From Candidatus Omnitrophota bacterium (GTDB lineage: Bacteria; Omnitrophota; Gorgyraeia; Gygaellales; Profunditerraquicolaceae), in the NCBI GenBank assembly GCA_963805065.1, contig CAWDSS010000017.1, forward strand, positions 64,726 to 128,725: a stretch of 64,000 nt of DNA, written 5' to 3'. The notes below the pieces were generated by a model. That model was not told where the DNA came from. It ran no database searches and saw only the letters and a program-made list of their open reading frames with translations. How positions within the stretch are numbered: the first letter of the stretch is position 1; every line of letters begins with the position of its first letter. A program made the translations under genes and the position numbers. Below are positions 786 through 55,020 of the stretch, piece after piece.

Positions 786-828
786 CTTGAATTAACCAAA
801 GTTTCTAATGTATGTATTTGAAACGGAT

Positions 829-868
829 AAAAAAACCTGCTGCATAGCTTTAATAACTACGCAGCAGG
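829..868 (-). terminator. Rho-independent terminator after the major pilin gene
   Basis: Minus strand reads CCTGCTGCGTAG-ttattaaag-CTATGCAGCAGG followed by TTTTTTT. This is a 12-bp stem 17 nt after the stop at 885. Confidence 0.7.
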
Positions 869-884
869 AGTTTTTAATATCAAA

Positions 885-1352: not shown

Positions 1353-1483
1353 AATACCCCCTTTTTAAAAATTCTGATTATTTTTGCTTGATTATGCAGG
1401 TTTTGTGTTTTTCTTCCACCCCCTTTCGGTGAAGCTCAATTTAAAATTAGCATAATAAGATTAAAAAGTCAAATACTTTATTA

Positions 1484-4437: not shown

Positions 4438-4439
4438 TA

Positions 4440-6579: not shown

Positions 6580-6585
6580 ATTTGT

Positions 6586-7110: not shown

Positions 7111-7123
7111 TCTTAACCCCTTT

Positions 7124-18867: not shown

Positions 18868-20542
18868 ATTGTTTAAAATGGAGAATGCCTTTTGTATGCA
18901 GTATATATTTAAGCAGTGTCTTTGCTATTCCCAGCCCGTAGATTAAGGAGGGTATAAATTTAATAGTTGAAGCCTCCTGGAAATAACGAGTGTGTATAGG
19001 CACCTCTTCTATTTTTAAATAGTGCATAATCCCCTGGACGATAATCTCATTATCAAATACGAAATTATCAGAGTTACGCATAAAATTTACCGACCTTAAG
19101 TATTTTACGCTATACGCCCTGAAACCGCTGTGGTATTCGCTAAGATAGGTGCCCAAAATAACATTTTCTGTTGCGCTAAGCAATATGTTGGCATTATGTT
19201 TCCATAAAGGCATTCCTCCCTCTAATGCACCCCCCTTCATCATCCTCGAACCGAATACGGCGTCGGCCTCGCCTTTTTGTATGGGCTCTATAAGCTTGGG
19301 GATTACCACGGGGTCATATTGATAGTCCGGATGGACCATCACTATGATTTCTGCCCCCATTTCCAATGCTTTAGTAAAACACGTTTTTTGGTTTGCCCCG
19401 TACCCTCTGTTTTTGTCGTGGGAAAATACTGTTAAGCCCAATCTTTTTGCAACTTCTACGGTATTATCGGTACTTGCGTCATCAACCAGGATTATATCGT
19501 CCACGAGGTTCTTGGGGATATCCCGCAGCGTTAACTCTAGGGTCTTTGAAGCGTTATAAGCAGGCAATACTACTATAGTTTTCATCTTTCTTTCTGCGTG
19601 CTTCTCTTTTTTCTCATCTTCTTTAATAAATTCCAGGGAGCGCTTTTTAAAGGCGATTATCTCAACCTGGTCGCCAAGATTGATTTTTATAAGCTTGTTA
19701 TGTAAAAATAATATTTTTGAAATGAAGTTGACCGAATAGAATAAAAAACTGTTATAATATCTTACCTTTTTGCTCCAATAACTTACGCTAAACACCCTTG
19801 CATGAGAAACGCACTTTATTGCCTTCAACCCAGCCGCATCAAGCATATTTGTCAAAGTCTTTTTAGAGAAATAATAGAGGTGCGCCTCTTTTATGCCCCA
19901 CCATCTTGCCCGCAGAAGCCTGCTTAACCAGCTTTCGATATCGGGGGTTGAAATACATAGTATACCGTTAGGTTTTAATATCCTCCTTACCTCCTCCAGG
20001 GTTTTTTTCGGGTCAGGCAAGTGTTCTATGCAATCCACCATAACAATAGCATCAAAATAATTAAAGGGGAATTTTGCGCTCTCCAGCGTGCCTTCAAAGA
20101 TATCCAGATTGTATTTATCTCTACCTATATTGGCAGCCCATGCGGATAATTCAATCCCGTGAGGATCCCATCCCTGTTTTTTAGCCTCATCAAGCAAAAA
20201 ACCCGTTGCGCATCCGATATCAAGGATCCTGCCGCCTCGCTTATATCTGGCAATCCTTTTAAGAATAATCCTCGCGGAAATCCTCCTACCCTGCTCTTCG
20301 TTGCTGTAATCAACATCTTGCATATTCCGGTAGCTTTCATATATTTTTATTTTATCCTGCTGGGGATTGATGTAAACTAAACCGCACCTTAAACACTGTA
20401 CAATCCTGAATGGCACAACGCATGCCAGGTCCGAGGTAATTTTATAAGTGAATTCCCGGCCATTTAAATCTCCTTCGCCGTTAAAAGAATATACGACTTT
20501 ATAATATTGCGAACCGCATAAATTACAGAGTGTCTGTGTCAT
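18860..20542 (-). CDS. Fusion protein: Zn-ribbon + class I SAM methyltransferase (N) / family 2 glycosyltransferase (C)
   Basis: N-terminus has CNLC...CLRC followed by SAM motif I (RILDIGCATGFLLDEA). From ~aa 320 there is GT2 (VLPAYNASKTLELTL, LVDDASTDNT, NRGYGANQKT). Confidence 0.75.
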   Translation of the reverse strand: MTQTLCNLCGSQYYKVVYSFNGEGDLNGREFTYKITSDLACVVPFRIVQCLRCGLVYINPQQDKIKIYESYRNMQDVDYSNEEQGRRISARIILKRIARYKRGGRILDIGCATGFLLDEAKKQGWDPHGIELSAWAANIGRDKYNLDIFEGTLESAKFPFNYFDAIVMVDCIEHLPDPKKTLEEVRRILKPNGILCISTPDIESWLSRLLRARWWGIKEAHLYYFSKKTLTNMLDAAGLKAIKCVSHARVFSVSYWSKKVRYYNSFLFYSVNFISKILFLHNKLIKINLGDQVEIIAFKKRSLEFIKEDEKKEKHAERKMKTIVVLPAYNASKTLELTLRDIPKNLVDDIILVDDASTDNTVEVAKRLGLTVFSHDKNRGYGANQKTCFTKALEMGAEIIVMVHPDYQYDPVVIPKLIEPIQKGEADAVFGSRMMKGGALEGGMPLWKHNANILLSATENVILGTYLSEYHSGFRAYSVKYLRSVNFMRNSDNFVFDNEIIVQGIMHYLKIEEVPIHTRYFQEASTIKFIPSLIYGLGIAKTLLKYILHTKGILHFKQFE

Positions 20543-22419
20543 TTTAAATCGGTTATAAATATCCTGCCGGAATCATCGGCTCCTTCGTCTGGCCTGCAAA
20601 TCATATTATTGCGAAAATCAAAAAAACCTATTCTTAATTCGTAATCCTGCTTGAGTAAATCACCCGGAATTTTAATCCTGTAGATGTCTTTAAATATCTG
20701 CCCTTCCTGCCAGCTATTCGTGGGGGAAATCCTGTAGCAAATTGGCATAAATTTCCTCAGTACCAAAGCACCGTTTCCATCTACAACGTCAAGAAAAATA
20801 TTGATATCTTTATCCGTATGCTTGAGAGAATGCCAGTAAAAAACAGCCTCCAAAATACCCTCTTTAGCGGGGGCGCTTATTTCATATCCCATCAGCTGGA
20901 TTTCATTATCTATGCTGATTCCGCTTTTATGCTGCAGGTCCGCGGGCACCTCCTGCACGGATTTAGATAGTACATATTTGGCAGGGGCGCCCTTCTGGAA
21001 TAAAACTATCGAATCAAGCATATCCTGCGCCTGGAAGTCTCCTTCCGATAGAAGATTCCGAATATTCTTATAGTTTTCCGGCCCATAAAATGACCTGAAC
21101 GTTAAGAAATCATTAAAATCAATCAAAGCATATTGCACGTCTTTCGGCAATTCATATCTTTTACTTGATATCGTATAATATCCCATATAAACATGGTGAA
21201 AAGAATAAAGACGGGCCCTATGCGACAGGTGGGATAGAAATTCAAATGTTGTAACCACCGATGCATCTTTGGGGATTTTAGCTAATAACGAATCTTTGTA
21301 TATATCCAGGTAGCCTTTCTTATAAAGGCCTATATTCCGCAATGCTGCAAAATGAGGACCCATAAATATATTGGCCGTCAATGCTATGGCTAATAGGCAA
21401 ATTTTAAGGCATATCTGGTAATTCTTAATCCACTTATTCTTCAACAAAAATTGCACTGCGAATATGAAGGCAAAAAATACGAACGGGATTATTTCTGCTG
21501 TATAGTGGTAGAAAATCGTCAATTCTGTAAACCTTGCCGAAATTATGTGCTGGAGAAAAAAAGGCAAAGCCGGGATTAACCCCAGAGGGGCCAATAATGG
21601 CAAAAAAGAAACGGGGAAGAAAATACTAAAAAGGTAATTAAGGCTTTGCGTCCTGAATAGTAATTTAATAAATAGACCGGGGTGCATTAAAAGGTTTAAT
21701 AAAACGCGGGGGAGAGAATCGCCTAAATAACCGTATATCGCGGCAAACTGGATCGTATTATTATTAAAGTACGACATTAACGAAAGGGCAGCGAAGAAAT
21801 AAACCGTTCCTAAAAAGATGGGCGTCAGTATCCATTTCAACTTGCGTTTATTAAAGAATGCCAGGGCCCCAAACATTATAATTGCCAAGGGTATATTTTC
21901 CTGGCAGAGCATGGATAATATGGCAAATATTAAGAAAGCCGTAAAAGAGGATGACACATAATAATAAATGGTAAAGGCTAGGAAGAATGTGGCAAATACT
22001 GTAGGGTGGAATTCGTACAGGTTAGTATAACCCAATGAAGGATAAAAAAGATAAACCGCGCTGATAACCAATGCCCAGCTATTGCCTATTAAACGCCTCG
22101 CCAATAGATACAGCGGGATAGCGCTAAAACCGAGGGCTATCGTTTGTAACAAAAGCAGGGTTATCGGATGGCTGAATATCATATAGAGCGGGACAGCGAA
22201 GAACATAATTAAATGCATGTGATTACCCAAGAATGGTATTCCCAGAATAGAATTAAATATTGAGCCATGCATCATATTCCATACAGCCAGGTCATGGACC
22301 GCCAAATCAAAATCATTATAAGAAAATGAATTGAATTTCATTATGCTGATTAAGCCGAAATAAAATATGTAGGCTAAAACCAGAATTGCCATAATTGACC
22401 TGCTTGTTTGTTTTTTCAT
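20539..22419 (-). CDS. DUF2079-family polytopic membrane protein with C-terminal extracytoplasmic domain
   Basis: 626 aa. YNDFDLAVHDLAVWNMMHGS...LGNHMHLIMFF...LLLLQTIALGFSAIPLYLLARR matches my memory of DUF2079. About 12 TM helices plus a ~200-aa soluble tail. Confidence 0.55.
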   Translation of the reverse strand: MKKQTSRSIMAILVLAYIFYFGLISIMKFNSFSYNDFDLAVHDLAVWNMMHGSIFNSILGIPFLGNHMHLIMFFAVPLYMIFSHPITLLLLQTIALGFSAIPLYLLARRLIGNSWALVISAVYLFYPSLGYTNLYEFHPTVFATFFLAFTIYYYVSSSFTAFLIFAILSMLCQENIPLAIIMFGALAFFNKRKLKWILTPIFLGTVYFFAALSLMSYFNNNTIQFAAIYGYLGDSLPRVLLNLLMHPGLFIKLLFRTQSLNYLFSIFFPVSFLPLLAPLGLIPALPFFLQHIISARFTELTIFYHYTAEIIPFVFFAFIFAVQFLLKNKWIKNYQICLKICLLAIALTANIFMGPHFAALRNIGLYKKGYLDIYKDSLLAKIPKDASVVTTFEFLSHLSHRARLYSFHHVYMGYYTISSKRYELPKDVQYALIDFNDFLTFRSFYGPENYKNIRNLLSEGDFQAQDMLDSIVLFQKGAPAKYVLSKSVQEVPADLQHKSGISIDNEIQLMGYEISAPAKEGILEAVFYWHSLKHTDKDINIFLDVVDGNGALVLRKFMPICYRISPTNSWQEGQIFKDIYRIKIPGDLLKQDYELRIGFFDFRNNMICRPDEGADDSGRIFITDLK

Positions 22420-22499: not shown

Positions 22500-22739
22500 T
22501 TATCTCTTTTTTTTCTTGCCGCCTCTTTTCATCTTAGCGCAAGAGATATCGCCTTTCTTGTCTAAGAAATAAAGGTAGCCTTCTTTTCTCTTGATACCAA
22601 CCTTGGCCACCTTCTTGGGGCTACCTCCTTTTTTGGTGCCTCTTGCCATCTTAGCGCAAGAAACATCGCCTTTCTTGTCAATATAATAGAGGTAGCCTTT
22701 CTGCCTCTTGATGCCCAGCTTTACTAATTTTTCTGCCAT
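22500..22739 (-). CDS. Small lysine-rich protein made of two 39-aa repeats
   Basis: 79 aa. (V/A)K(L/V)GIKR(Q/K)(K/E)GYLY(Y/F)(I/L)DKKGD(V/I)SCAKM(A/K)RG occurs twice (117-nt DNA period). Strong SD GGAAGGGGGTGA and its own terminator. Confidence 0.7.
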   Translation of the reverse strand: MAEKLVKLGIKRQKGYLYYIDKKGDVSCAKMARGTKKGGSPKKVAKVGIKRKEGYLYFLDKKGDISCAKMKRGGKKKKR

Positions 22740-22773: not shown

Positions 22774-23595
22774 TTAAGAGCCTACTTTAACCGGCTCCAA
22801 AATTTGTTTTAAAGTTGCCGCGGCTGATAACACTGCCAGATAACTTGTCTTGGGATTATTAGGATGAATAACGTTTTCGGTCCTGGCGGTAATTTTACCG
22901 CAGTCAGATTCAATTTCTATTTCGTGAATATTGTTGGTTACATTCGGTGAGGCAATTATACGCACAAGCGTATCTATCGGCCCAATTCCGGCGATACTCA
23001 ATGTTACCGCTACGTTAATATTCTGCGGAAACGCCCTTATGGCTGTCATGGCGTTACCTTCAAAAATAACGGTTTCCTCCGAGATATTATCCAACCTGAT
23101 CTGTCTTTTCAATACGTAAGGATTGCCTAAAAACGCCTTCGCAGGTTTCTTGGTAGTCAGGGTAACTTTGTTAATTTTGCCTACGGAGGCTGCCTTTAAA
23201 CCGTCAATGCCGCATATGGCACCCGAAGGAATAAAAATATGCGCATTTTTTTCTTCGGCAAACAGGAATAATTCTTTGTAATTCTCAACAATGCCCCCTA
23301 CACTTAAAATCATTATGTCCTTGGAAAGCGCAAGAGTTTTTTTGATTATCTCTACCACACTATCCGGTTTAGTAGCCTCAATAATCAAATCTGACTTATT
23401 GATTAAGCTTTCAAGATTTAGAACCGTCAACTTTTGATTATTAAGATTATGCGCCAAACTGTAGGCCTTTTCCATATCGATATCAAAAATTCCTGATAAC
23501 TGCGCTTTTTGTGAGAATTCTTTGGTAATGTAACTGGCCAGAGAAGAGCCTATAGCACCACATCCTACAATTCCTACTTTTAATAACTTTGGCAT
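22774..23595 (-). CDS. nadX: L-aspartate dehydrogenase
   Basis: VGIVGCGAIG, FIPSGAICGIDGLKA, FPQNINVAVTL and NNPKTSYLAV parallel the Thermotoga NadX motifs. I use ATG 23595 because the ORF-track start 23616 is a TTG inside a repeat. Confidence 0.8.
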   Translation of the reverse strand: MPKLLKVGIVGCGAIGSSLASYITKEFSQKAQLSGIFDIDMEKAYSLAHNLNNQKLTVLNLESLINKSDLIIEATKPDSVVEIIKKTLALSKDIMILSVGGIVENYKELFLFAEEKNAHIFIPSGAICGIDGLKAASVGKINKVTLTTKKPAKAFLGNPYVLKRQIRLDNISEETVIFEGNAMTAIRAFPQNINVAVTLSIAGIGPIDTLVRIIASPNVTNNIHEIEIESDCGKITARTENVIHPNNPKTSYLAVLSAAATLKQILEPVKVGS

Positions 23596-23611
23596 ATGAA
23601 TTAACGTAAAA

Positions 23612-23706
23612 GTCAAAACGTAAAAATAAAAACTGCAACTTAAAACTAAAAACGTTTTAAGTTTTGCGTTGCAGTTTTGCGCTTTGAGTTTTTAGTTTTG
23701 AGTTTA
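23612..23706. repeat. Palindromic block of A/T-rich heptamer repeats at the panC/nadX junction
   Basis: (N)AAAAC(N) units on the left and GTTTT(N) units on the right, centred on AACGTT at 23651..23656. An 11-bp perfect stem AAAACTGCAAC/GTTGCAGTTTT is present. The block encodes the last ~15 aa and the stop of panC. Confidence 0.75.
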
Positions 23707-26151: not shown

Positions 26152-26209
26152 TTTTTACTTTTGCCTTTAAACTTTTAACTTTTGGCTTTTTCCTTTTAAC
26201 TTTTACTTA
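26152..26209. repeat. Tandem A/T-rich heptamers (plus strand CTTTTNN) at the dapB/dapL junction
   Basis: tactttt gccttta aactttt aactttt ggctttt tcctttt aactttt acttaac. Includes the dapB stop codon. Confidence 0.7.
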
Positions 26210-26995: not shown

Positions 26996-27886
26996 TTACA
27001 ACAATCCGTACTCTTTTAATGCTTTTTTAAGTTTCTCCATGTTTTCCGGCAGCATCTCACACATGGGTAGACGCAAATCCGGTTCGCACATTCCCAATAA
27101 TCCCATTGCGGTTTTAACCGCTATAGGATTTGTTTCAATAAATAAAGCTTTAATCAAAGGCAAGAGCTTAAAATGCAGTTCTTTCGCTTTTGATAGGTTA
27201 CCTTTTTCAAATTGAGCTACTAACTCAGCCACATCTTTTGGCACGATATTAGCTACTACTGATATAATACCGGTGCCTCCGATACTTAAAACCGGTAAGG
27301 TAAGGCTATCATCTCCGGATATCAAATCAAAATTCGCAGGGCACAATTGTTTTATACGAGACATCTGGTCTAAGTTTCCCGATGCCTCTTTTACGCCTAC
27401 GATATTTTTGCAATCATGGGCTAATTTAGCAATAGTTTCAGGCTCTATGTTAACGCCTGTGCGCGAAGCAATATTGTAAAGGACTATAGGAATGCTTACT
27501 GATTTTGCCACGGCTTTAAAATGTTCATAAAGTCCTTTTTGCGTAGGCCTGTTATAATAAGGAGAAACCTGTAATGACGCATCTGCTCCGGCTTTTGCAG
27601 CATGTTTGGTGAGCATTATTGCTTCATCGGTAGAGTTTGATCCGGTACCAGCAATTACAGGCACTCTTTTTTTGGTTTGTTCGATTGTGATTTCAATAAC
27701 CCGGTCATGCTCTTCAAAAGAAAGAGTCGCAGATTCACCGGTTGTCCCGCAAGGCACGATTCCACTGCTGCCGTTTTTAATCTGGAACTCAATTAATTCC
27801 CTAAGCTTACTCTCATCAACTCTATTTTTTCCTCCGGAGGCGGATTCAAAAGGCGTAACTATAGCTACGATAGAACCTTTAAACAT
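26996..27886 (-). CDS. dapA: 4-hydroxy-tetrahydrodipicolinate synthase
   Basis: VPCGTTGESATLS, YNRPTQ, and active-site Lys context GVKEASG. Confidence 0.95.
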   Translation of the reverse strand: MFKGSIVAIVTPFESASGGKNRVDESKLRELIEFQIKNGSSGIVPCGTTGESATLSFEEHDRVIEITIEQTKKRVPVIAGTGSNSTDEAIMLTKHAAKAGADASLQVSPYYNRPTQKGLYEHFKAVAKSVSIPIVLYNIASRTGVNIEPETIAKLAHDCKNIVGVKEASGNLDQMSRIKQLCPANFDLISGDDSLTLPVLSIGGTGIISVVANIVPKDVAELVAQFEKGNLSKAKELHFKLLPLIKALFIETNPIAVKTAMGLLGMCEPDLRLPMCEMLPENMEKLKKALKEYGLL

Positions 27887-28688
27887 AGTATTCTCCTTTA
27901 TGGACTATCCTTACTTTACCTTCCAGCCAGACTTCCCTAAAACTTCTACCCAGTTTTTTAAAAAATACCCGTAATAATTCATTACTTTTAGTCTGCACCT
28001 GCACTTTACTAACAGCCCTTGTCTTTAAGGCAAAAATCAGGGCTGCCGCTACTGACCCAGTCCCACAGGCAAGCGTCTCATCTTCCACTCCTCTTTCGTA
28101 TGTGCGTATGGCAATTAAATTGTCTTTCAGCACTTCTACAAAATCTACGTTTGTGCCTCGGGGAGAAAATTTATGATGATAGCGTATTGCCTGGCCTATC
28201 TCATCAACATCTATATCTTTAAGCCCTTCTACGAATATTACGGCATGAGGAACGCCTGTATCAATGAAATTAATTTTAATATTCCTCTTATTAACTTGCA
28301 GGGGGATATCTAATTTAAGGTCCCTGGGATTTGTTAGTTTTATTTTTACATCGCCATTATTGATATAAGATTCAATAATTCCAACTTTGGTTTCGATTCT
28401 TGGGTTCTGGGTTCTAGGTTTTAGGTTCTTGCTTAGCCAAAAGGCAACGCACCTTGCCCCATTACCGCACATTTCAGCCTCTGAACCGTCGGCATTGAAG
28501 ATGCGCATTTTGATATCGGCAAGCCCAGATTTCTCTAAAAGCAATAAACCATCTGCTCCTATTCCATATTTCCTATCGCATATTTTCTTAGCTAAAGCAG
28601 TTGGGTTCTTGATTTTATTACCCCTGTTATCGACAATCACAAAGTCATTACCGGAAGCAACCATTTTGCTGAATTTAAGTTTTTGCAT
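27879..28688 (-). CDS. dapF: Diaminopimelate epimerase
   Basis: ASGNDFVIVDN and both catalytic Cys motifs (MCGNGARC, ACGTGSVAAA). Confidence 0.93.
   Translation of the reverse strand: MQKLKFSKMVASGNDFVIVDNRGNKIKNPTALAKKICDRKYGIGADGLLLLEKSGLADIKMRIFNADGSEAEMCGNGARCVAFWLSKNLKPRTQNPRIETKVGIIESYINNGDVKIKLTNPRDLKLDIPLQVNKRNIKINFIDTGVPHAVIFVEGLKDIDVDEIGQAIRYHHKFSPRGTNVDFVEVLKDNLIAIRTYERGVEDETLACGTGSVAAALIFALKTRAVSKVQVQTKSNELLRVFFKKLGRSFREVWLEGKVRIVHKGEYYV
28395..28429. repeat. Tandem heptamers (plus RGGTTCT, i.e. AGAACCY on the coding strand) inside dapF
   Basis: gattctt gggttct gggttct aggtttt aggttct. Encodes KNLKPRTQNPRI. Confidence 0.8.
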
Positions 28689-28689
28689 T

Positions 28690-29958
28690 TTATATTTTAG
28701 CCAGAAACCTGGGTATTATTTCGTTTTTAACCAGATCCTCGCGGGTTTCTCTCTTCCTGATTACAAACGCCCTGTTTTTGACAACCATTACCTCTTGGGC
28801 TTTTAGCCTGGAATTATAATTACTGGACATACTAAAGCCATATGCCCCGGAACTCATAATAGCCAAGTAATCGCCTTCTTTGACTTTAGGCAGCTTTCTG
28901 TCTTTAGCAAAGAAATCAGCGCTTTCGCAAATTGGACCTACTATATCTACTCTCTCGATGCTCTTTGCTCGATGCTCGATGCTCGTAGGCAAAATCTGAT
29001 GGTATGCATCGTATAAAGCAGGCCTGATTAAATCATTCATCCCTGCGTCTACGATTATAAATTCCTTTTTAGGAGTCCTTTTAATGTATAAAACTTTTGT
29101 CACGAGTATGCCGGCATTGCCAATAATAAACCTTCCGGGCTCCATGATAATGCGTAGTCTTGTTTCTTTAAGTAACGCTAAGACTCTTTGAGCGAATTTC
29201 TGGGCAGTTTGAGGCGTTTCTTTATTATAAACTATTCCTAATCCTCCTCCGATATTAAGATATTCCAGAGTAATGCCCTTGTGCCTTAATTTGCCTATGA
29301 AATCCACTATTTTATTAATAGCGCAAATGTAGGGCGCCCCTTCAGTTATCTGGGAACCTATATGTATATGCAGCCCCGAAATCTTTAAATTAAAAAACCT
29401 ATCGCGCATTAACAGGATATCGTATGCACTTTTAAAATCTATCCCGAATTTATTGGTAAGTTTTCCCGTCGTGATATATTTGTGGGTTTTTGGCTCTACA
29501 TCCGGATTGATGCGTATTGCTACTCTTACAATCTTGTTTAGTTTCCTGGCTATGCGGTTAATGTTTTCTAATTCAGGCAGTGATTCTACGTTGAAAAACA
29601 GGATTCCCCTTCTTATCGCTTCTTCAATTTCTTTGTCTGTTTTCCCTACTGAAGCATAAACGATTCTGCTTGCAGGACAGCCTGCTTTAATTGCGCAAAA
29701 GAGCTCTCCCCCTGAAACAACATCCAGGCCTGCGCCTCTTTGAACCAGCGTCCTAAGGATAGCTAAATTAGAATTGGCTTTAACCGAATAGCAAATTAAA
29801 GGTTTAATCTGCCTGAAGGCATCTGTTAGCTTGTTAAAGTGGTCGATAATAGTCTGATAGCTATAGATATAAAGAGGCGTCCCGAATTCTTTAGCCAGTG
29901 CCTCTACTTTTACCTGTTCACAAAAAAGTTGATTATTCCTATATTTAAATTCGTGCAT
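28690..29958 (-). CDS. lysA: Diaminopimelate decarboxylase
   Basis: CYSVKANSNLAIL (PLP Lys), NIGGGLGI, GPICESADFF. Confidence 0.95.
   Translation of the reverse strand: MHEFKYRNNQLFCEQVKVEALAKEFGTPLYIYSYQTIIDHFNKLTDAFRQIKPLICYSVKANSNLAILRTLVQRGAGLDVVSGGELFCAIKAGCPASRIVYASVGKTDKEIEEAIRRGILFFNVESLPELENINRIARKLNKIVRVAIRINPDVEPKTHKYITTGKLTNKFGIDFKSAYDILLMRDRFFNLKISGLHIHIGSQITEGAPYICAINKIVDFIGKLRHKGITLEYLNIGGGLGIVYNKETPQTAQKFAQRVLALLKETRLRIIMEPGRFIIGNAGILVTKVLYIKRTPKKEFIIVDAGMNDLIRPALYDAYHQILPTSIEHRAKSIERVDIVGPICESADFFAKDRKLPKVKEGDYLAIMSSGAYGFSMSSNYNSRLKAQEVMVVKNRAFVIRKRETREDLVKNEIIPRFLAKI
28954..28988. repeat. Tandem heptamers CTCGATG inside lysA
   Basis: ctcgatg ctctttg ctcgatg ctcgatg ctcgtag. 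Encodes PTSIEHRAKSIER. Confidence 0.8.
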
Positions 29959-31330: not shown

Positions 31331-31372
31331 TTTTTCCTCTTTTAGTTTTGCGTTCTATCCAGAATGAACCTT

Positions 31373-31428
31373 AGTTTTGCGTTTTTCCTTTTGCGTTTTA
31401 CTTTTACCTTTTTACTTTTACCTTTTAT
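31373..31428. repeat. Tandem A/T-rich heptamers at the argG/argH junction
   Basis: agttttg cgttttt ccttttg cgtttta cttttac cttttta cttttac cttttat. TTAGTTTTGCGTT also occurs at 31342..31354. Includes the argG stop. Confidence 0.75.
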
Positions 31429-33943: not shown

Positions 33944-34006
33944 TGCTTTCAGCTCTCAGCCTTCAGCTTTCAGCTGATGACTGACAGCTGATGACTGAAA
34001 GCTAAA
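33944..34006. repeat. Nine tandem heptamers (AGCTTTC... then AGCTGAT/GACTGAA) across the argD stop / argF start
   Basis: tgctttc agctctc agccttc agctttc agctgat gactgac agctgat gactgaa agctaaa. The two halves are partly inverse-complementary. Encodes the argD C-terminus FQSSAVSHQLKAEG*. Confidence 0.8.
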
Positions 34007-35167: not shown

Positions 35168-35176
35168 TTTTAAAAT

Positions 35177-35234
35177 AAAGGGGACGTTTCTATTTTTCCT
35201 CTAAACTGGAGACGTTAAAAATAGAAACGTCCCC
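35177..35234 (-). terminator. 64-nt hairpin element, copy 2 (between argB and argD)
   Basis: Same arms as copy 1 (AAAGGGGACGTTTCTATTTTT / AAAAATAGAAACGTCCCC). The loop also contains GGAGACGTT, and the minus strand continues TTTATTTTAAAA-ATG(argD). Confidence 0.6.
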
Positions 35235-35244
35235 ATTTTTTCAC

Positions 35245-35279
35245 AGTTTTGCCTTTTTACTTTTACGTTTTGAGTTTAT
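35245..35279. repeat. Tandem A/T-rich heptamers at the argB stop
   Basis: agttttg ccttttt actttta cgttttg agtttat. Includes the argB stop at 35276. Confidence 0.65.
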
Positions 35280-36130
35280 TTTACTATCTCCGTTCCCACA
35301 CCCTGATCCGTGAATATTTCCAACAATAACCCGTGAGGAGTGCGCGCATCAATGATGTGTGTCTTCTTTACTCCCTTAGCCAGCGCTTCAATGCAAGCAG
35401 CTACCTTCGGGATCATGCCTTGCTGAATAATATTATTTTCTGCCAAGCCTTTTGCTTCTTCTGTGCTCAGAGTAGAAATAAAAGAATGGGGATCATCGGC
35501 ATTTCTCATAATCCCCTTAACGTTGGTTAACAAAACCAGTTTTTCCGCTTCTAATCCGGCAGCAATGCTTGCTGCAACTTCATCCGCATTAACATTGTAC
35601 GTTTTCTTGTCTTTACCCCTGCCCATAGGTAAAATTACCACGATTTTATCTTTTCTCAATTCATCTACCAAGGGTGCGGTATCTATCTGGGTAATATGCC
35701 CCACCAAACCCAAATCTACATTAGCCTTCTTTTTCTCAACCTGGATTATGTTTTTATCTTTACCGTTTATACCTGCGGCTTTTGCTCCTAACTCATCAAT
35801 TTCTTTTACTATTAAAGTATTCAGGTTTTGCAGTTCTTCCTCCACTAGATTAAGCGTCTCCTCATCAGTTACGCGCATGCCGTTTACAAACTCGGTTTTT
35901 TTGCCTGAGGCCCGCATTCGGTCGCTGATATTAGGCCCGCCGCCATGCACCAGTACCGGGCGTAAACCCATGAAATTTAAAAACACGATATCCTCCAATA
36001 CGCCCCTCCTTATCTTCTCTTCTCCTAAAATACTTCCGCCATATTTTATGACAATTGTTTTCTTATGGAATTTTTTAATATAGGGAAGCGCCTCAATAAG
36101 GACATCTGCTTTTCTAATTGCTTCTTCCAT
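35276..36130 (-). CDS. argB: Acetylglutamate kinase
   Basis: VIKYGGS and LVHGGGP motifs. 284 aa. Confidence 0.95.
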   Translation of the reverse strand: MEEAIRKADVLIEALPYIKKFHKKTIVIKYGGSILGEEKIRRGVLEDIVFLNFMGLRPVLVHGGGPNISDRMRASGKKTEFVNGMRVTDEETLNLVEEELQNLNTLIVKEIDELGAKAAGINGKDKNIIQVEKKKANVDLGLVGHITQIDTAPLVDELRKDKIVVILPMGRGKDKKTYNVNADEVAASIAAGLEAEKLVLLTNVKGIMRNADDPHSFISTLSTEEAKGLAENNIIQQGMIPKVAACIEALAKGVKKTHIIDARTPHGLLLEIFTDQGVGTEIVK

Positions 36131-36141
36131 GTTTTCCTTCC

Positions 36142-37281
36142 TTAATTGTATGCTGCATTTATTCTTATGTATTCGGGTGTTAAATCCGAGGTGTAAATTA
36201 TGCTGGAAAATTTACCTTTACCGATTAATACATCCACAGATATATCTTTTTTATTCAAGGGGCTTAGCTTAATTTTCATGTCTTTTTCTCTTACTGCTAT
36301 GCCGCTTGCGCCAACGCCAGCGACAATTCTTCCGAAATTCGGGTTCTCGCCGTACATCGCAGTCTTAAATAAATTCGAATTGGCGATAAATAATGCTGCT
36401 GTTAAAGCATCTTCTTTGCTCCTTGCGCCCCTTACCTTAATCTGAATGAATTTTGAAGCACCTTCTGCATCCCGGACAATCATTTTGGTAAGTTCATCGC
36501 ATACTATGCCTAATGCTTTTACAAACGCATTGAATCCTTTTTTTGCACTGATCACAGGATTACCGCTTGCGCCGTTTGCCAAAAGCATCACAGTGTCATT
36601 TGTGCTCATACAGCCATCAACGGTTATGCAATTGAAAGAACCAGATACGCAGATGTTTAACGATTTATTAAGTGCCTGTTGCGCAATATTAGCGTCTGTA
36701 AAAATAAATACCAGCATGGTTGCCATATTGGGAGCGATCATCCCTGCGCCTTTAGCAATTCCGCAAACCGTAACAATTTTACCGCCAATATTAAACTTTA
36801 CCGTAACCTGTTTGGGGAAAATATCGGTTGTCATAATAGAGAACTTCGCTTTATCTATTCCTTTTGCCGATAAACCTGTTATTAGTTTAGGTATGACCTT
36901 ATTTATAAGGCCTACCTGAAGCCGTTTACCGATAATTCCCGTAGAAGCCACTAGCACACTTTCTTTCTTAATACCCAAAGCAAAAGCCAGGGCCTTTGTA
37001 GTTGATTCTGCATCTCTTTCTCCCTGTTCACCGGTAAAGCAATTCGCATTTCCGCTGTTTACAACTATTGCCCTAACGCCTTTGTTGCTCTTAAGATGCT
37101 GCTTACATACTTTTATAGGAGCAGCCTGTATTTTATTTGTGGTAAATAAACAACTTGCCTTTGCCGAGATATCCGAATAAAACAAGGCAAGGTCCAATTT
37201 TCTGGATTTTTTAATGCCACACCATATGCCATTAGCCTTAAAATGCTTAGGCAGAATTGCTTTCTTATACAACTTTAACAT
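36142..37281 (-). CDS. argJ: Bifunctional ornithine acetyltransferase / N-acetylglutamate synthase
   Basis: Autoprocessing-site region MATMLVFIFTDA. 379 aa. Confidence 0.92.
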   Translation of the reverse strand: MLKLYKKAILPKHFKANGIWCGIKKSRKLDLALFYSDISAKASCLFTTNKIQAAPIKVCKQHLKSNKGVRAIVVNSGNANCFTGEQGERDAESTTKALAFALGIKKESVLVASTGIIGKRLQVGLINKVIPKLITGLSAKGIDKAKFSIMTTDIFPKQVTVKFNIGGKIVTVCGIAKGAGMIAPNMATMLVFIFTDANIAQQALNKSLNICVSGSFNCITVDGCMSTNDTVMLLANGASGNPVISAKKGFNAFVKALGIVCDELTKMIVRDAEGASKFIQIKVRGARSKEDALTAALFIANSNLFKTAMYGENPNFGRIVAGVGASGIAVREKDMKIKLSPLNKKDISVDVLIGKGKFSSIIYTSDLTPEYIRINAAYN

Positions 37282-38291
37282 AAAGATGCTTTCTCAGGAA
37301 AGCCGTACATGATGTTCATATTCTGCACTGCCTGCCCTGCTGCGCCTTTCAATAAATTATCAATTGCCGCAATGATTATTATTTTGTCTACCTCGTCTTT
37401 AATCGCTATATCGCAAAAATTAGTCATTGCCACGTCTTTAATTCTGGGGAAATCCTGTCCTTCTCTAACCCTGATAAATGGCTCTTTCTTATAGAACTTC
37501 TTATACAAATCCACTAAATTCTGCCCGCCGGATTTCCTGATTTTCTTGGCATATATCGTAGCCAAAATACCCCTGCTTAAAGGAAGCAGGTGCGGAACAA
37601 ACGTTACCGCGATATTCTTACCGGCTAGCTTTGATAACTCCTGATTAATTTCTGGAGAATGCTGATGCACGTTTACTTTATAGGCTTTAAAATCTTCATT
37701 AACTTCCGAAAACAAGAAACTTTCTGCTAATTTTCTTCCTGCGCCGGTAACGCCGGATTTGGCATCAATGACTATTGATTCTAAATCAATTTTATTAAGA
37801 GCCACTAAAGGCGCTAACGCCAAAATGCTTACCGTCGGGTAGCACCCGGGGTTAGCAATAAGCTTTGCGGTCTTAATCTTGGCACGATACAACTCGGGCA
37901 ATCCGTAAACCGCAGCAGACAAATGCGGCTTGTCTTTATGCTTGGCATTATAAAATTTTTCATAAACTTGCGTATTCTCAAACCTGTAATCCGCGCTTAA
38001 GTCTATAACTTTTTTACCGGTCTTTAAAAGTTTTGGCACTAACTCCATGGAAACTGTGTGTGGTAGCGCCAGAAATACCAAATCGCAACTGGAAGCAATT
38101 TCTTTTAGATCGGGTTCTTTGCAGATAAGGCTTATTCTGCCTTTAAACTTAGGGAATATCTCTGAAATCACTTTAGGTTGATCAATCTTTGCAGAGATGT
38201 TTGTTATCCGTACCTGGGGGTGATCTAGAAGTAAACTGATTAACTCTTCTCCTGCATAACCTGTTGCACCTACTATACCTACGTTTATCAT
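37275..38291 (-). CDS. argC: N-acetyl-gamma-glutamyl-phosphate reductase
   Basis: VGATGYAGEELI and NPGCYPT motifs. Start taken at ATG 38291 (MINVGIVG, SD GGAG), not the ORF-track start 38327. Confidence 0.93.
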   Translation of the reverse strand: MINVGIVGATGYAGEELISLLLDHPQVRITNISAKIDQPKVISEIFPKFKGRISLICKEPDLKEIASSCDLVFLALPHTVSMELVPKLLKTGKKVIDLSADYRFENTQVYEKFYNAKHKDKPHLSAAVYGLPELYRAKIKTAKLIANPGCYPTVSILALAPLVALNKIDLESIVIDAKSGVTGAGRKLAESFLFSEVNEDFKAYKVNVHQHSPEINQELSKLAGKNIAVTFVPHLLPLSRGILATIYAKKIRKSGGQNLVDLYKKFYKKEPFIRVREGQDFPRIKDVAMTNFCDIAIKDEVDKIIIIAAIDNLLKGAAGQAVQNMNIMYGFPEKASLC

Positions 38292-38309
38292 AATAGCTCC
38301 TTTAATGAG

Positions 38310-38348
38310 CACATGACTTACGAACACGAAGTGTGAGTAAGTTATGTC
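38310..38348. repeat. AACTTACG-type palindromic element, copy B (argC 5' leader)
   Basis: CACATGACTTAC-gaACACgaaGTGTga-GTAAGTTATGTC, 19 nt upstream of the argC ATG and downstream of the predicted promoter. Confidence 0.65.
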
Positions 38349-39518: not shown

Positions 39519-40313
39519 TTAATATTTCACCTTCATCAGGCATAATCCGCAGGCGGGCGCAGTGGGGCCGGTTGAGTTCCTGTCTTTACTATGCAGTAGC
39601 CTCCTTAGGTGACCCTTTTTAAACCTACCCCTGCCTATTTCTATGAGGGTACCGACTATGCTTCTGGCCATATTATACAGGAAACCATCTGCTTCTATAT
39701 CAATAACAATTAAAGAATCTTTGAACCTAGAACCAAAACCAGAGAACCTAGAACCCAATTTTCTAACACTTATCTTCTTTATGGTACGTATAGTATTTTT
39801 AGCACTACTGCCGCTAGCACAAAATGCCTTAAAATCATGCTTACCCAATAAACTTCTGGCTTCCCGCTGCATTAAGCTGATGTTCAATGCATAAGAACAA
39901 AAATAGGCCTGCTTCCTCAAAAGTGCAGATGGATAGTTACGGTTTAATATAACATAACGGTAAACTTTGGATTGCGCATCAAACCGGCTATGAAAATCAA
40001 GCCTTGATTCCTCTATTTTAGAAATAGAGATGTCTTTGGGTAAAAGGCAGTTCAACGCCTTTTGCAGTTTCTTTACGCCAATGTAAGAATTTGTAAGAAA
40101 ATTCGCTACCTGAGCCTGGGCATGGACACCTGCATCGGTCCTTCCTGCGGAAATTAACCTGACTTTTTCTTGCAGGATTTTGCGTAGAGCTTTTTCTATT
40201 ATCTCCTGGATGGCCTTCTTAGAACGGTGGGATTTAACTAGTGAATCATTCTGAACCTGCCAACCACAATAATCGGAGCCGTCATATTCTATTTCGAGCT
40301 TGAGATTAGGCAT
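39519..40313 (-). CDS. truA: tRNA pseudouridine(38-40) synthase
   Basis: SAGRTDAGVHA catalytic motif. 264 aa. Confidence 0.93.
   Translation of the reverse strand: MPNLKLEIEYDGSDYCGWQVQNDSLVKSHRSKKAIQEIIEKALRKILQEKVRLISAGRTDAGVHAQAQVANFLTNSYIGVKKLQKALNCLLPKDISISKIEESRLDFHSRFDAQSKVYRYVILNRNYPSALLRKQAYFCSYALNISLMQREARSLLGKHDFKAFCASGSSAKNTIRTIKKISVRKLGSRFSGFGSRFKDSLIVIDIEADGFLYNMARSIVGTLIEIGRGRFKKGHLRRLLHSKDRNSTGPTAPACGLCLMKVKY
39722..39756. repeat. Tandem heptamers AGAACCN inside truA (same family as in dapF, opposite orientation relative to the gene)
   Basis: tgaacct agaacca aaaccag agaacct agaaccc. Encodes GSRFSGFGSRFK. Confidence 0.8.
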
Positions 40314-41323
40314 TGCGCTATCTGAATAGCATTAGTTGCCGCGCCCTTACGCAAATTATCTGCTACCACCCATAACCAAAGCCCGTTCTTGCTGAAACAA
40401 TCCCTGCGTATCCTGCCGACAAAGACTTCGTCTTTGCCTTCTGCATCTTTAGGCATGGGGTAGAGATTTTTGACAGGATCATCAATTACGACTATCCCTG
40501 GAGATCCGGAAAGCAAGGTTTTTACTTTCTGCGGGTCAATAGGCTTGGCTGTCTCAATATACACTGATTCCGAATGCCCCGTCCTTACGGGAACTCTTAC
40601 AGTAGTTGCGGAAATCTTGATTAAATCATCGTGCATAATTTTATGCGTTTCGCGGACCAGCTTCCATTCTTCACTGGTATAATCACACTCTGCAAAACCG
40701 CCTATATGCGGAAATACATTGAACGCCAGTTGTTGCGGCATTGCCTTTTCTTTCACATTAACATGCAGATTAATGTAACCACCTGAGGAAATTTCCTGTA
40801 CTTCTGCATTTAGCTGTTCAACAGCGCCCTTGCCAGCTCCTGAAGACGCCTGCAAAGTGGTAACGATTATCCTTTTAATCCCAACTTTTTTATAAATTGG
40901 CCACAATGCCACGACCATCTGTATGGTAGAGCAATTGGGATTCGCAATTATGCCTCTGTGTTTTTTTACATCCCGGGCATTTACCTCAGGTACTACCAGC
41001 GGAACATCTGCCTTCAGGCGAAAATCAGCGCCATTATCAATAACCACAGCCCCTCTTACAATTGCGTCTTGCGCATAAGTAACTGCTGCCCCTTTTTCAC
41101 CCTCGGTTCCTGCAAATAAAACTATATCAATACCGTCGAAACCTTGGGGCGATATGGCTTTAACCTGGTAGGTTTGCCCGTCTACTTCAATTTCCCTTTC
41201 GCTGCGGGCAAAAACGCGTAATTCATCAACCGGAAAATTACGCTGTTTTAAGACACGCAACATCTCAACACCCACTACCCCCACCCCTACCACCGCCACA
41301 TTATACTTTGATTTATTTTTCAT
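40289..41323 (-). CDS. asd: Aspartate-semialdehyde dehydrogenase
   Basis: IANPNCSTIQMV active-site motif. 344 aa. Confidence 0.95.
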   Translation of the reverse strand: MKNKSKYNVAVVGVGVVGVEMLRVLKQRNFPVDELRVFARSEREIEVDGQTYQVKAISPQGFDGIDIVLFAGTEGEKGAAVTYAQDAIVRGAVVIDNGADFRLKADVPLVVPEVNARDVKKHRGIIANPNCSTIQMVVALWPIYKKVGIKRIIVTTLQASSGAGKGAVEQLNAEVQEISSGGYINLHVNVKEKAMPQQLAFNVFPHIGGFAECDYTSEEWKLVRETHKIMHDDLIKISATTVRVPVRTGHSESVYIETAKPIDPQKVKTLLSGSPGIVVIDDPVKNLYPMPKDAEGKDEVFVGRIRRDCFSKNGLWLWVVADNLRKGAATNAIQIAQCLISSSK

Positions 41324-45694: not shown

Positions 45695-45700
45695 ATTGGA

Positions 45701-45815
45701 AAGGTAAAAGTTAAAAGCAAAAAGGTAAAAGTTAGAAGTAAAAGTCAAAAGCATAAAAATACTTTTAATTTTTTACTTGTACTTTTTACTTTTGGCTTTT
45801 TACTTTTTACTTAAC
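45701..45815. repeat. ~115-bp imperfect palindrome built from A/T-rich heptamers (TAAAAGN / NCTTTTA)
   Basis: taaaagt taaaagc aaaaagg taaaagt tagaagt ... actttta atttttt acttgta cttttta cttttgg cttttta cttttta. Lies between the fabF stop and the leuC start. Confidence 0.8.
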
Positions 45816-52930: not shown

Positions 52931-55020
52931 CCTACCACCATTAACTTCTCATATTCCGGGAATCTCTGCAGAAGCTTCTGCTTTAACCCCAGGTTCTGCT
53001 TAGCCTCTAAGCCAGGATCCAGCTCTATAAGCTTTATTGCCTCATCCCGTGCCATCTTTAACAGCTTCATCTGCGTCAAAGGATTTGCGATTTTCAGTTC
53101 AGCTAAGCCATGCTGCCTGCTGCCGAAAAATTCACCCGGACCCCTGATTTTTAAGTCCTCCTCGGCAATACGGAATCCGTCATTGAATTGAACCATGGTT
53201 TGAATACGCGCTTTGGCTTCTTCGGTCGCTGCGTCAGCAACAAGAATACAGACTGACTCAAGCCCACCTCTTCCTACCCTGCCGCGTAATTGATGCAATT
53301 GGCTTAAACCGAAACGCTCTGCATGTTGGATAATCATACAGGTGGCATTGGGTATGTCAATGCCGACTTCCAGAACTGTTGTAGAAATCAACATATCCAA
53401 ATCCATATTCCGAAAATCCGACATTACCTGGTCTTGTTCCTCCTGTTTTAACCTGCCGTGAATCAGGCCTAATCTAAATTCTTTGAATTCTCCTGCCTTT
53501 AATTCACTGAATGCCTTTTTTACGCCTGCAATATCCAGTTCGTATGATTCCTCGATAACCGGATAAATTACATACACCTGCCTTCCTTGTTTTAATTCAT
53601 TCCTTGCTAAGCCGTAAGCTTGCAATGCCTGTTCTTGGCTAAAATGCAATGTTTTAACAGGTAGCCTTCCTGCCGGAAGTTCATTAATAACAGAAATGTC
53701 CAGGTCCCCGTACAAAGTAATTGCCAGCGTGCGGGGGATAGGAGTTGCAGTCATGATTAATACATCGGGGTTAATGCCTTTTTTAGGCAATAATGCCCGC
53801 TGGCTGACCCCGAATTTATGCTGTTCATCAATTACCACCAGGCCTAAGTTCTTAAATCCAACTGACTCTTCCAACAAGGCATGAGTACCGATTACCAAAT
53901 CAATCCTTCCCTCTTTTGCCTCCTGCTGGATTTTTTGTTTTTCTTTTTTGTCAATGCTGCTGGTAAGCAGCGCTACCTTTATCTGCTTTTGCTGAAAGCT
54001 GAGAGCTGAAAGCTGAGAGCTGATTTTCTCGAAATGCTGTTTGGCTAATATCTCCGTAGGCACCATGAAGGCAGCCTGATATCCTCCTTGTATGGCAATC
54101 ATACAGGCAATATTCGCCACTACGGTTTTACCCGACCCCACGTCACCCTGCAAAAGCCTCTGCATTGCCTGTGGCCTTGCCATGTCCAGCTTTATTTCTT
54201 CAATTACTTTTTTTTGTGATTCTGTCAGTTTAAAGCTAAGGCAGTTTATGAAATCCTGCTTGAGCTTGCCTTCAACTTTGTGAACGATCCCGCTTTTATT
54301 TGCTTTTTTTAATTTTCGTAAAACTAGGGGTAACTGGAATACAAAGAATTCTTCAAAGGCTAGCCTTCGGTATGCCTGTTGTTGTATCTGGTGATCTTGC
54401 GGAAAGTGCATACTGATGATGCTCTTTGCCAGATTTAGTAAATCATTCCTCGACCTGATATCAAAGGGGAGGGAATCATTCACAAAGGGGAGATACTCAT
54501 CGGCTACGGATTTAATAATTTTACGCAAACTTCGCTGAGTCATGTTTTGGGGTAAAGTATAAACGGGGACGATCCTACCTATGCTAAGCGACTGATCTTT
54601 GTCTCCTGAAACAATTTCAAATTCCGGGGAACTCATCTGCAACCTGTTTGCATAACGTTCAACCTTTCCGTACAAAATTAGAGTATCTTTGACTTTAAAA
54701 TAATCCTTAAGGTAGGGCTGGTTAAACCACACGCAAGAAATTTTTCCACTATCATCCCCTACCGTTACTTCAATTATGCTAAACCCACGCCTTCTAAAAG
54801 AAGTGCGTGCATTTTTCGCCAAGACTTCTGCTTTTATGGTCTGGACCTGTCCTTCTTGAAGTTTGGATATCGGGCTAAATTTTGTGCGGTCTTCGTAGCG
54901 CCGGGGGAAATAATAAAAAAAATCCTCTATCACGCTAACGCCACTCTTTTCTAAAGCCTTGGCTCGCTTAGGCCCGATTCCTTTTAAATAACGGACCGGT
55001 GTATCCAGCGATTTTTTCAT
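52927..55020 (-). CDS. recG: ATP-dependent DNA helicase RecG
   Basis: LLQGDVGSGKTVVA, VVIDEQHKFGV, QLHQLRGRVGRG. 697 aa. Confidence 0.95.
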   Translation of the reverse strand: MKKSLDTPVRYLKGIGPKRAKALEKSGVSVIEDFFYYFPRRYEDRTKFSPISKLQEGQVQTIKAEVLAKNARTSFRRRGFSIIEVTVGDDSGKISCVWFNQPYLKDYFKVKDTLILYGKVERYANRLQMSSPEFEIVSGDKDQSLSIGRIVPVYTLPQNMTQRSLRKIIKSVADEYLPFVNDSLPFDIRSRNDLLNLAKSIISMHFPQDHQIQQQAYRRLAFEEFFVFQLPLVLRKLKKANKSGIVHKVEGKLKQDFINCLSFKLTESQKKVIEEIKLDMARPQAMQRLLQGDVGSGKTVVANIACMIAIQGGYQAAFMVPTEILAKQHFEKISSQLSALSFQQKQIKVALLTSSIDKKEKQKIQQEAKEGRIDLVIGTHALLEESVGFKNLGLVVIDEQHKFGVSQRALLPKKGINPDVLIMTATPIPRTLAITLYGDLDISVINELPAGRLPVKTLHFSQEQALQAYGLARNELKQGRQVYVIYPVIEESYELDIAGVKKAFSELKAGEFKEFRLGLIHGRLKQEEQDQVMSDFRNMDLDMLISTTVLEVGIDIPNATCMIIQHAERFGLSQLHQLRGRVGRGGLESVCILVADAATEEAKARIQTMVQFNDGFRIAEEDLKIRGPGEFFGSRQHGLAELKIANPLTQMKLLKMARDEAIKLIELDPGLEAKQNLGLKQKLLQRFPEYEKLMVVG
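53991..54025. repeat. Tandem heptamers GCTGAAA/GCTGAGA inside recG (same family as 33944..34006)
   Basis: gctgaaa gctgaga gctgaaa gctgaga gctgatt. Encodes SSQLSALSFQQ. Confidence 0.8.

Follow-up and report, generated by a model that had tools for sequence, protein, structure and literature searches.

Within a 64,000-nt stretch of a Candidatus Omnitrophota contig (CAWDSS010000017.1, positions 64,726 to 128,725; hereafter the window, whose own numbering is used for all coordinates), the genes dapF, lysA and truA each contain a short tandem array of 7-nt units. All three arrays are in frame and encode connecting loops between invariant motifs, as a first-pass annotation made from the DNA letters alone had placed them. 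We found that they are part of an excess of period-7 DNA that extends through genes and spacers of the window and of related Omnitrophota loci. They are probably heptanucleotide simple-sequence repeats akin to the STRRs of cyanobacteria (short tandemly repeated repetitive DNA), with slippage or template switching, followed by a selective filter, as the main mechanism. The following appear to be new: the phylum in which the arrays occur, the fact that 7-nt units persist in frame within core enzymes, the repeated use of orthologous loop hot spots by units that differ between species, and concerted evolution that can be seen at those sites.

The three host genes lie on the minus strand and are clear orthologues of solved enzymes, as judged by phmmer searches against the PDB: dapF (27879..28688) encodes a diaminopimelate epimerase of 269 aa (5ha4, E=1e-41; PF01678 is found in the Omnitrophota homologues), lysA (28690..29958) a diaminopimelate decarboxylase of 422 aa (2p3e, E=9e-127), and truA (39519..40313) a tRNA pseudouridine38-40 synthase of 264 aa (1dj0, E=7.5e-39; PF01416). 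The sequences of their arrays, also on the minus strand, were read directly and the frames checked. The dapF array (28395..28431) comprises four NAGAACC units and a degenerate one and specifies S86-R97 (SKNLKPRTQNPR). Its coding strand from 28429 to 28395 reads AGAACCT AAAACCT AGAACCC AGAACCC AAGAATC (peptide KNLKPRTQNPRI), which amounts to three exact units, one with a single mismatch and one poor unit. The lysA array (28954..28988) contains about 4.6 units of GAGCATC type on the coding strand and specifies T325-E335 (TSIEHRAKSIE); its plus strand reads CTCGATG CTCTTTG CTCGATG CTCGATG CTCGTAG, with three exact units and two carrying two mismatches each, and the peptide is TSIEHRAKSIER, that is, (T)SIEHRAKSIER. 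The truA array (39722..39756), of GGTTCTA type on the coding strand, specifies G187-K198 and is the source of a 12-aa insertion. On the plus strand it reads TGAACCT AGAACCA AAACCAG AGAACCT AGAACCC (peptide GSRFSGFGSRFK), with a -1/+1 indel pair that preserves the register.

Tandem Repeats Finder assigned period 7 to the dapF, lysA and truA arrays, with scores of 40, 50 and 36 and copy numbers of 3.9, 4.6 and 4.7, respectively. The arrays, their coordinates and their 7-nt period are thus as first annotated, but the five units counted in each come down to about four good ones. In consensus, the units of dapF and truA are exact reverse complements of one another (GGTTCTA vs GAACCTA; inverted-repeat pair I20), which agrees with the earlier suggestion that truA carries the dapF unit family in the opposite orientation. 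When up to two mismatches were allowed, the motif AGAACCYAGAACCY had six matches in the window vs 1.0 expected, a number reached by none of 100 shuffles, and the motif CTCGATGCTCGATG had four matches vs 0.16 expected.

The 7-nt period, present in coding and non-coding DNA alike, is a property of the DNA and not a protein repeat. We defined a periodic region as one with at least 17 of 21 self-matches at a given lag and used first-order Markov shuffles as the control. The window contained seven regions at lag 7, four at lag 14 and two at lag 21, with ~0.02 expected from the shuffles at every lag, and no region at periods 3–6 or 9–13. Across 63 Omnitrophota loci (948 kb), period 7 accounted for 83 regions and period 14 for 29, and no other period exceeded 10, compared with a single period-7 region in 187 kb of non-Omnitrophota loci. 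The loci closest to the window all come from metagenome-assembled Candidatus Omnitrophota genomes, and gene order is kept among the Omnitrophota loci (the arg operon, lysA, dapF, dapA and dapB). Together these loci held 115 arrays, whose units were very diverse and mostly unique: 39 arrays were wholly intergenic, 23 ran across gene ends and 53 lay wholly inside open reading frames (ORFs), so that intergenic and gene-end arrays accounted for 62 of the 115 in ~7% of the bases. Individual loci differed in array density, from 0 to 0.9 per kb. The unit length is 7 nt and not a multiple of three; inside genes, each unit is therefore read in all three frames, giving peptides with a 7-residue period, and the 21-nt and 7-aa periods are derivatives of the 7-nt one. 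The three genes first reported as hosts are hosts indeed, but the arrays range far more widely, into recG, the tails of argD and panC, the spacers of the window and enzyme loops throughout the phylum.

Mapping the arrays of related loci onto the proteins of the window showed that in-frame arrays recur at a small set of loops, three in DapF, one in LysA, one in ArgC and two in TruA, with units that vary by species. In DapF, 27 of 27 arrays fell in three loops, near aa 20-27, 84-101 and 221-233. In LysA, all eight were at about aa 320-335, mapping near aa 328-335, which is the loop occupied by the window's own array, and were built of other units. Ten of the 11 ArgC arrays were near aa 263-270, and the remaining one was at the gene start; the argC of the window itself (37275-38327) has no recognisable array at this hot spot, which is used in ten related loci. 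All other mapped arrays, outside the interiors of DapF, LysA and ArgC, were at gene ends: no array from a related locus mapped to PanC, FolK, ArgB or RplM, and none of those mapped was interior to DapA, ArgH, ArgG or ArgF. At two loops, TruA homologues are hypervariable and have peptides that repeat every 7 residues (for example SYHLSPITYHL, AYGLQLKAYSL and, at the N-terminal loop, SPQSIVRSPQ), and the DNA of one related locus, L082, confirmed heptamer arrays at the TruA loops. The unit hosted by a given loop changes from one species to the next. We also looked for a frame-shifted allele among 35 internal dapF and lysA arrays and found none, all of the host genes being intact.

Loop lengths differed among the three enzymes in how they related to those of homologues. 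The TruA loop is 12 aa longer than that of E. coli TruA (1dj0), and six of 40 Omnitrophota orthologues lack the insert and are 12 aa shorter. DapF aligns without gaps with 5ha4 and 8qzy, and 9mro is longer by 2 aa; among 58 Omnitrophota orthologues, the loop is 6 aa shorter in 21 (a 45-nt vs a 63-nt segment). LysA is 2 aa longer than 2p3e and 3n2b and 3 aa shorter than 4xg1, and its loop spans 8 to 13 residues in Omnitrophota orthologues, the window's loop having 12, up to 4 aa more than the short forms. Judged from these alignments, only the truA array among the three is an insertion relative to distant homologues, whereas the dapF and lysA loops are of normal length compared with solved structures, yet repeat-derived and non-ancestral among close relatives. 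The statement in the first-pass annotation that homologues have shorter loops therefore holds for TruA but not for DapF and LysA against distant homologues. Of the findings that it said would count against insertion, normal length was observed for dapF and lysA, but the segments proved neither ancestral nor free of repeat origin.

AlphaFold2 models built on homologue alignments for TruA and DapF largely place the peptides where the annotation had proposed to look for them, in surface loops. In TruA the peptide occupies a hairpin loop modelled with low confidence (residues 186-200) between strands 175-185 and 201-209, with a predicted local distance difference test score (pLDDT) <50 at residues 189-194, and in DapF it forms the C-terminal end of helix 75-88 together with loop 89-96. 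In the DapF model, all three array hot spots are connecting loops. The N-terminal loop of TruA (residues 22-30, window 40220-40250) exceeds its E. coli counterpart by 8 aa and also has pLDDT <50; its DNA in the window retains no lag-7 signal, though relatives have peptides of 7-aa period there.

The dapF site offers a view of how an array changes while its position stays fixed. At the same position and with the same length, L075 has four perfect GAGAACC units and L077 four perfect GCAAACC units; the window has four degenerate NAGAACC units, and L078 has a decayed copy. Each unit of the L075 array deviates from its L077 counterpart at two positions, which are the same ones throughout. Two perfect arrays related in this way cannot result from point mutation; they indicate homogenisation in place, by contraction and re-expansion or by conversion, and hence concerted evolution. 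As for the origin of arrays, the register of the dapF array reaches into conserved codons, those for R-I-E-T (AAGAATC GAAACC); in locus L042, the unit TATAGCG coincides with conserved L-Y-S-A codons. Because the register and unit match conserved codons in these two cases, it is plausible that arrays are seeded from local sequence.

Beyond dapF, lysA and truA, arrays in the window were found in one further gene interior, at gene junctions and in spacers. An array in recG (53989..54025, minus strand) has five TCAGCTY units arranged as a 14-nt super-unit and encodes KISSQLSALSFQQ, making RecG 5 aa longer than solved RecG structures. At the argD-argF junction (33945..34003, minus strand), TCAGCTY and GCTGARA arrays stand head to head in inverted orientation. 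The 5′ arm specifies the final 15 residues of ArgD, and together the two arms fold into an RNA hairpin (-38 kcal/mol, z -7.2). The junction arrays share the TCAGCTY unit with recG and pair with its array as I8/I11/I16; both loci contain the alternating super-unit of 14 nt, and over 23 nt their arrays show 96% complementarity. At the junction of panC with the aspartate dehydrogenase gene (23603..23705, minus strand) are inverted AT-rich heptamer arrays (pair I2; fold z -3.65), one arm of which supplies PanC with its C-terminal tail of 16 residues. AT-rich arrays are also present in five intercistronic spacers. Spacer arrays include TTTTAAC x7.7, which fills the dapB-aminotransferase spacer (26152..26206); TTTTACC/TTTTGCG x6.7 between argG and argH (31371..31427); an AT-rich array of family D2 between argB and argD (35244..35296), adjoining a hairpin element at 35170-35241; and, between fabF and leuC (45700..45812), an inverted AT-rich pair, AAAGTTA x7.6 and TACTTTT x7.7, that forms a long hairpin (-32.1 kcal/mol, z -6.7). 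A-rich arrays sit immediately upstream of start codons. According to these fold predictions, the inverted-pair junction arrays probably act as mRNA hairpins. The in-frame arrays folded no better than shuffles (z +1.30, -1.68, +0.24 and +0.11).

Arrays of one genome have units in common far more often than arrays of different genomes do. Among within-genome pairs of arrays at least 300 nt apart, 14 of 214 had identical units vs 0.9% expected, and 39 of 214 agreed to within one mismatch vs 5.9% expected; neither figure was reached in any of 2000 permutations. In the window, the sharing pairs are dapF/truA (AGAACCY) and recG/argD junction (TCAGCTY), so that its five GC-containing arrays yield two identical pairs vs ~0.09 expected at the cross-locus background rate. 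In L082, five of nine arrays in 20 kb have the unit YWTGAAC, in both orientations: one in the truA loop, one in the argC loop, one in leuC and two at junctions. The truA-loop array of L082 is built from units related to those of the window but in the opposite orientation, and is therefore not simply inherited.

The account that we favour as probably correct, that these are STRR-like repeats shaped by slippage or template switching and by selection, can be set out as follows. Replication slippage and template switching would create and homogenise arrays, strongly favouring the 7-nt register in this lineage, and new sites would be seeded from local near-repeats or by copying family arrays that the genome already has. 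Any array that breaks the frame or disturbs the fold would be purged by purifying selection, and the loop peptides that remain would be hypervariable, without a required function of their own. Copy number would then be expected to vary still.

Several observations weigh against this account. No copy-number polymorphism was observed, only turnover of the unit between species, the searched collections containing no strain-level relatives of the window. The nearest relatives of the window's proteins among 5.8 billion proteins were 70% (TruA) and 68% (DapF) identical; when polymorphism was sought in 90%-identity clusters, DapF loop 1 was found to vary by another hairpin element and not by heptamers. 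Loci L075 and L076, which have the same DapF and come from two samples, had three single-base differences in their shared region and no difference in array length, and the indels between genome pairs of 87–94% nucleotide identity, from array-poor lineages, were hairpins resembling miniature inverted-repeat transposable elements (MITEs) or terminators and a 21-nt element, not arrays. In addition, loops do not differ in length by simple multiples of 21 nt, DapF having modes of 45 and 63–66 nt. Strict in-frame slippage, in which arrays would step between one, four and seven units (±21 nt), fits these lengths poorly, so that in-frame slippage in its pure form can be only part of the explanation. 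Simple local slippage also leaves the within-genome sharing of unit families unexplained, and the 14-nt super-unit common to recG and the argD junction, like the opposite orientations of the truA-loop array in L082 and the window, goes beyond it. Finally, the 7-nt preference has no explanation under this account, and no responsible enzyme was identified.

In the main rival explanation, the arrays are ultra-small mobile DNA, with genome-specific families copied and pasted in either orientation by a trans-acting mechanism. This would be in-frame colonisation of genes in the true sense, comparable in its effect to Rickettsia palindromic elements or to the small dispersed repeats of cyanobacteria. 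We think it rather unlikely that Omnitrophota possess such a unit-family-specific mechanism, one that copies arrays to new sites without conserved ends or a cis-encoded transposase. Within-genome unit sharing at ~7 times expectation argues for it, as do the five arrays of one family distributed over truA, argC, leuC and two junctions of L082 in both orientations, the 96% complementarity of the recG and argD-junction arrays with their common super-unit, the related units in opposite orientation at the truA loop of two species, and the in-frame insertion, in relatives, of other small elements (a 21-nt hairpin and one of ~54 nt) into the loops that host arrays. However, we sought conserved ends, common flanks and target-site duplications and found none, and unit number is variable. 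No transposase, REP-associated tyrosine transposase (RAYT) or reverse transcriptase is encoded in the 64-kb window, where a Pfam scan of 40 ORFs detected no mobile-element enzyme. Moreover, the unit changes among orthologous dapF arrays that keep one position and one length, an indication of homogenisation in place, and some units match local conserved codons.

The remaining explanations are less probable still. The arrays could be functional cis elements, either sites bound by a protein or an RNA or modules of structural RNA, whose in-frame copies are maintained for regulation; the strong mRNA hairpins at junction arrays (z -7.2, -6.7 and -3.65) and the A-rich arrays directly 5′ of start codons, comparable to a proposal for TAACTGA repeats (PMC4679880), are in keeping with this. 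We nonetheless consider it improbable, given that in-frame arrays fold no better than shuffles, that units vary between species at one site and between sites in one genome, that many orthologues have no array at all, and that an Rfam search matched no family. It is more improbable yet that the arrays are contingency loci, in which gain or loss of one unit toggles dapF, lysA, truA or recG by phase variation. A 7-nt unit is not a multiple of three, so a one-unit change does shift the frame, and the perfect arrays of four to five units in relatives should be prone to slippage; but the hosts are core biosynthetic or housekeeping genes, the arrays of the window are imperfect, each of the 35 arrays examined in dapF and lysA keeps the frame of an intact gene, and the sites are internal loops and not the 5′ regions or promoters of surface genes. 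The usual signature of such loci, a perfect tract that lies in the promoter or 5′ coding region of a surface, restriction-modification or virulence gene and occurs as on and off alleles, was not seen. As for chance low-complexity sequence or misassembly, the arrays are short (28–37 nt) and imperfect, and elsewhere the metagenome assembly has an apparently frame-shifted leuB. This explanation is nevertheless already refuted by the controls: the shuffles; the recurrence of the period-7 excess in dozens of independent assemblies; the identical array in two samples (L075 and L076); and an independent Logan assembly of the window's source run, ERR10755942, which is 100% identical across 1937 nt including the truA array. 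The arrays are also shorter than the reads and k-mers used, and their reading frames are intact. The possibility of an assembly artefact raised by the first-pass annotation can accordingly be set aside.

The Omnitrophota arrays show several of the features that define STRRs: they have at least about three head-to-tail 7-nt copies, show a period-7 excess, and fall into few families per genome in both orientations. Like the STRRs of heterocystous cyanobacteria (Mazel et al.), they are tandem 7-nt units frequent in intercistronic spacers. In both cases a genome has few unit families at many loci and in both orientations, and the origin and spread are unexplained. STRRs resemble the arrays further in that they can occur within an essential gene, rnpB in cyanobacteria; Vioque is said to have described them in 1997 within the cyanobacterial RNase P RNA gene. 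They differ in having been described mainly as intergenic and in another phylum, whereas about half of the arrays here are in frame inside protein-coding genes; unlike STRRs, moreover, the Omnitrophota arrays occur at orthologous loop hot spots with species-specific units.

Heptamers have been described more generally as the most abundant class of long simple-sequence repeats in many bacteria, an excess for which polymerase slippage over a contact of ~7 nt was proposed as the cause, and repeats in coding sequence as usually built of units divisible by three (Mrazek, Guo and Shah 2007, as summarised in PMC4679880 and PMC4692102). Long simple-sequence repeats of 7 nt, including GGGAATC of Xanthomonas and Nostoc (PMC4692102), are like the present arrays in differing in length and sequence between related genomes and, in that summary, in the prominence of period 7 among periods 1–11. 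As summarised there, the surveys stress intergenic location, in contrast to the in-frame arrays in core enzymes reported here. TAACTGA heptamers of Beggiatoaceae, Cyanobacteria and Bacteroidetes occur as 2–6 units, in most cases immediately upstream of a start codon; a small number run across gene ends or sit in frame, in reverse orientation, at protein peripheries, and mobility was considered as the means of their spread although 'no mechanism is evident' (MacGregor 2015, PMC4679880). TAACTGA is a single fixed unit found across phyla, whereas the Omnitrophota arrays have many units, genome-specific families and internal loop hot spots.

Rickettsia palindromic elements, to which the first-pass annotation likened the arrays, are reportedly dispersed palindromes of ~100–150 nt with similarity over their full length, as described by Ogata and colleagues in 2000. 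The likeness is one of outcome: in both cases, repeats lie in frame in housekeeping genes and add surface peptides while function is kept, and the arrays do occupy tolerant surface positions, with loops seen in the AlphaFold2 models for TruA and DapF only. It does not extend to the DNA, given that the arrays are direct repeats of 28–37 nt without palindrome, defined or conserved ends, or target duplication. Copies have only the 7-nt unit in common, with neither full-length similarity nor shared flanks, and the in-frame arrays form no palindrome or stem-loop. Borg tandem repeats, which create disordered protein regions, are similar in evolving rapidly, arising independently and adding peptide segments; within genes, their units are perfect and multiples of three (PMC9879509), which the 7-nt unit here is not.

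Other small elements were observed at or near the same sites. A hairpin element of ~21 nt (CCTGCCTGTCGGCAGGCAGG-like) lies in frame at heptamer-hosting loops, where it encodes peptides such as PLPVRQAG, PACRQG and LPAGQAG; it was seen at DapF loop 1 (L041 vs L045, and P0248), DapF loop 3 (P0133 and P0219) and the TruA loop (P0014, P0071 and P0074), is at times nested within an array, and varies between proteins that are 94–96% identical. Nostocaceae are said to have small dispersed repeats, hairpins of 21–27 nt that behave as mobile DNA, according to Elhai and colleagues in 2008. Those repeats resemble the 21-nt hairpin of the relatives, which is a class separate from the heptamers and absent from the three arrays of the window. 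An element of ~54 nt encoding RRGNLKKRDCFAPAGLAMT lies in frame in dapF loop 2 of L025 (about 11300-11390) and is missing from L020, a relative with 95% identical LysA; further copies are in spacers. In the window, a 72-nt hairpin element, GGGGACGTTTCTATTTTT...AAAAATAGAAACGTCCCC, occurs in intergenic spacers at 14097-14168 and 35170-35241, with heptamer arrays on its flanks; the two copies are 89% identical and fold at -42 kcal/mol (z -9.9). Related GGGACGGTTCT...AGAACCGTCCC hairpins account for indel differences between close Omnitrophota genomes (L020/L025 and L034/L041). This widespread element was considered as a source of the AGAACC unit and rejected, the window version reading GACGTTTCT and the pattern not being enriched.

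Several other features of the window were noted. Nearly all genes from 1 to 64000 are on the minus strand, and GC skew is negative throughout. A cluster resembling type IV pilus or type II secretion systems, with PilM-, PilO-, secretin-, T2SSE- and T2SSF-like genes, spans 402-8671. The 3-isopropylmalate dehydrogenase gene leuB (42003-43054, minus strand) is split into an N-terminal part of 99 aa (42755-43054) and a C-terminal part of 224 aa (42003-42677) in different frames, with the intervening conserved segment in the third frame, and hence contains two single-base frameshifts, making it either a pseudogene or a site of consensus errors. Between leuB and asd, a 225-aa ORF (41320-41997) has no Pfam match and no counterpart in L082. 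The gene for an RsmD-like methyltransferase (PF03602; 52265-52930, minus strand) has a 45-nt in-frame tandem duplication (52465-52559; 2.1 copies, 93% identical) that encodes two copies of ATPNLIGEVGVPPSA and breaks up the PF03602 match. A repeat finder reported 300-nt stretches at 60270-60569 and 62501-62800 as identical; the histidine-kinase paralogues that contain them (60253-62451 and 62487-63983) are neighbours, and the cause could be recent duplication, conversion or assembly collapse. A 93-nt direct repeat (22512-22604 and 22629-22721; 80% identical, spacing 117) occupies the gap between the ORFs at 20539-22419 and 22774-23616.

To our knowledge, heptanucleotide arrays, whether called STRRs or 7-nt simple-sequence repeats, have been known for 35 years with their 7-nt preference and the spread of their families unexplained. 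In Omnitrophota the arrays are inside universally conserved enzymes, and orthologous sites can therefore be aligned across hundreds of species. The birth, homogenisation, orientation, decay and loss of arrays become readable on a fixed protein scaffold, and their origin becomes testable by comparative genomics. The arrays show that essential genes can retain a repeat whose unit length is not divisible by three, and the hypervariable loop peptides that 7-nt units yield are a source of lineage-specific protein variation. In practice, they also call for caution in annotation, in the trimming of alignments and in phylogenomic work on the phylum. If arrays are indeed copied to new sites by a dedicated mechanism, this would constitute a new class of ultra-small mobile DNA that continuously remodels the surface loops of essential enzymes and also builds intercistronic hairpins, and the conserved enzymes of Omnitrophota would serve as a record of its insertion, homogenisation and decay.

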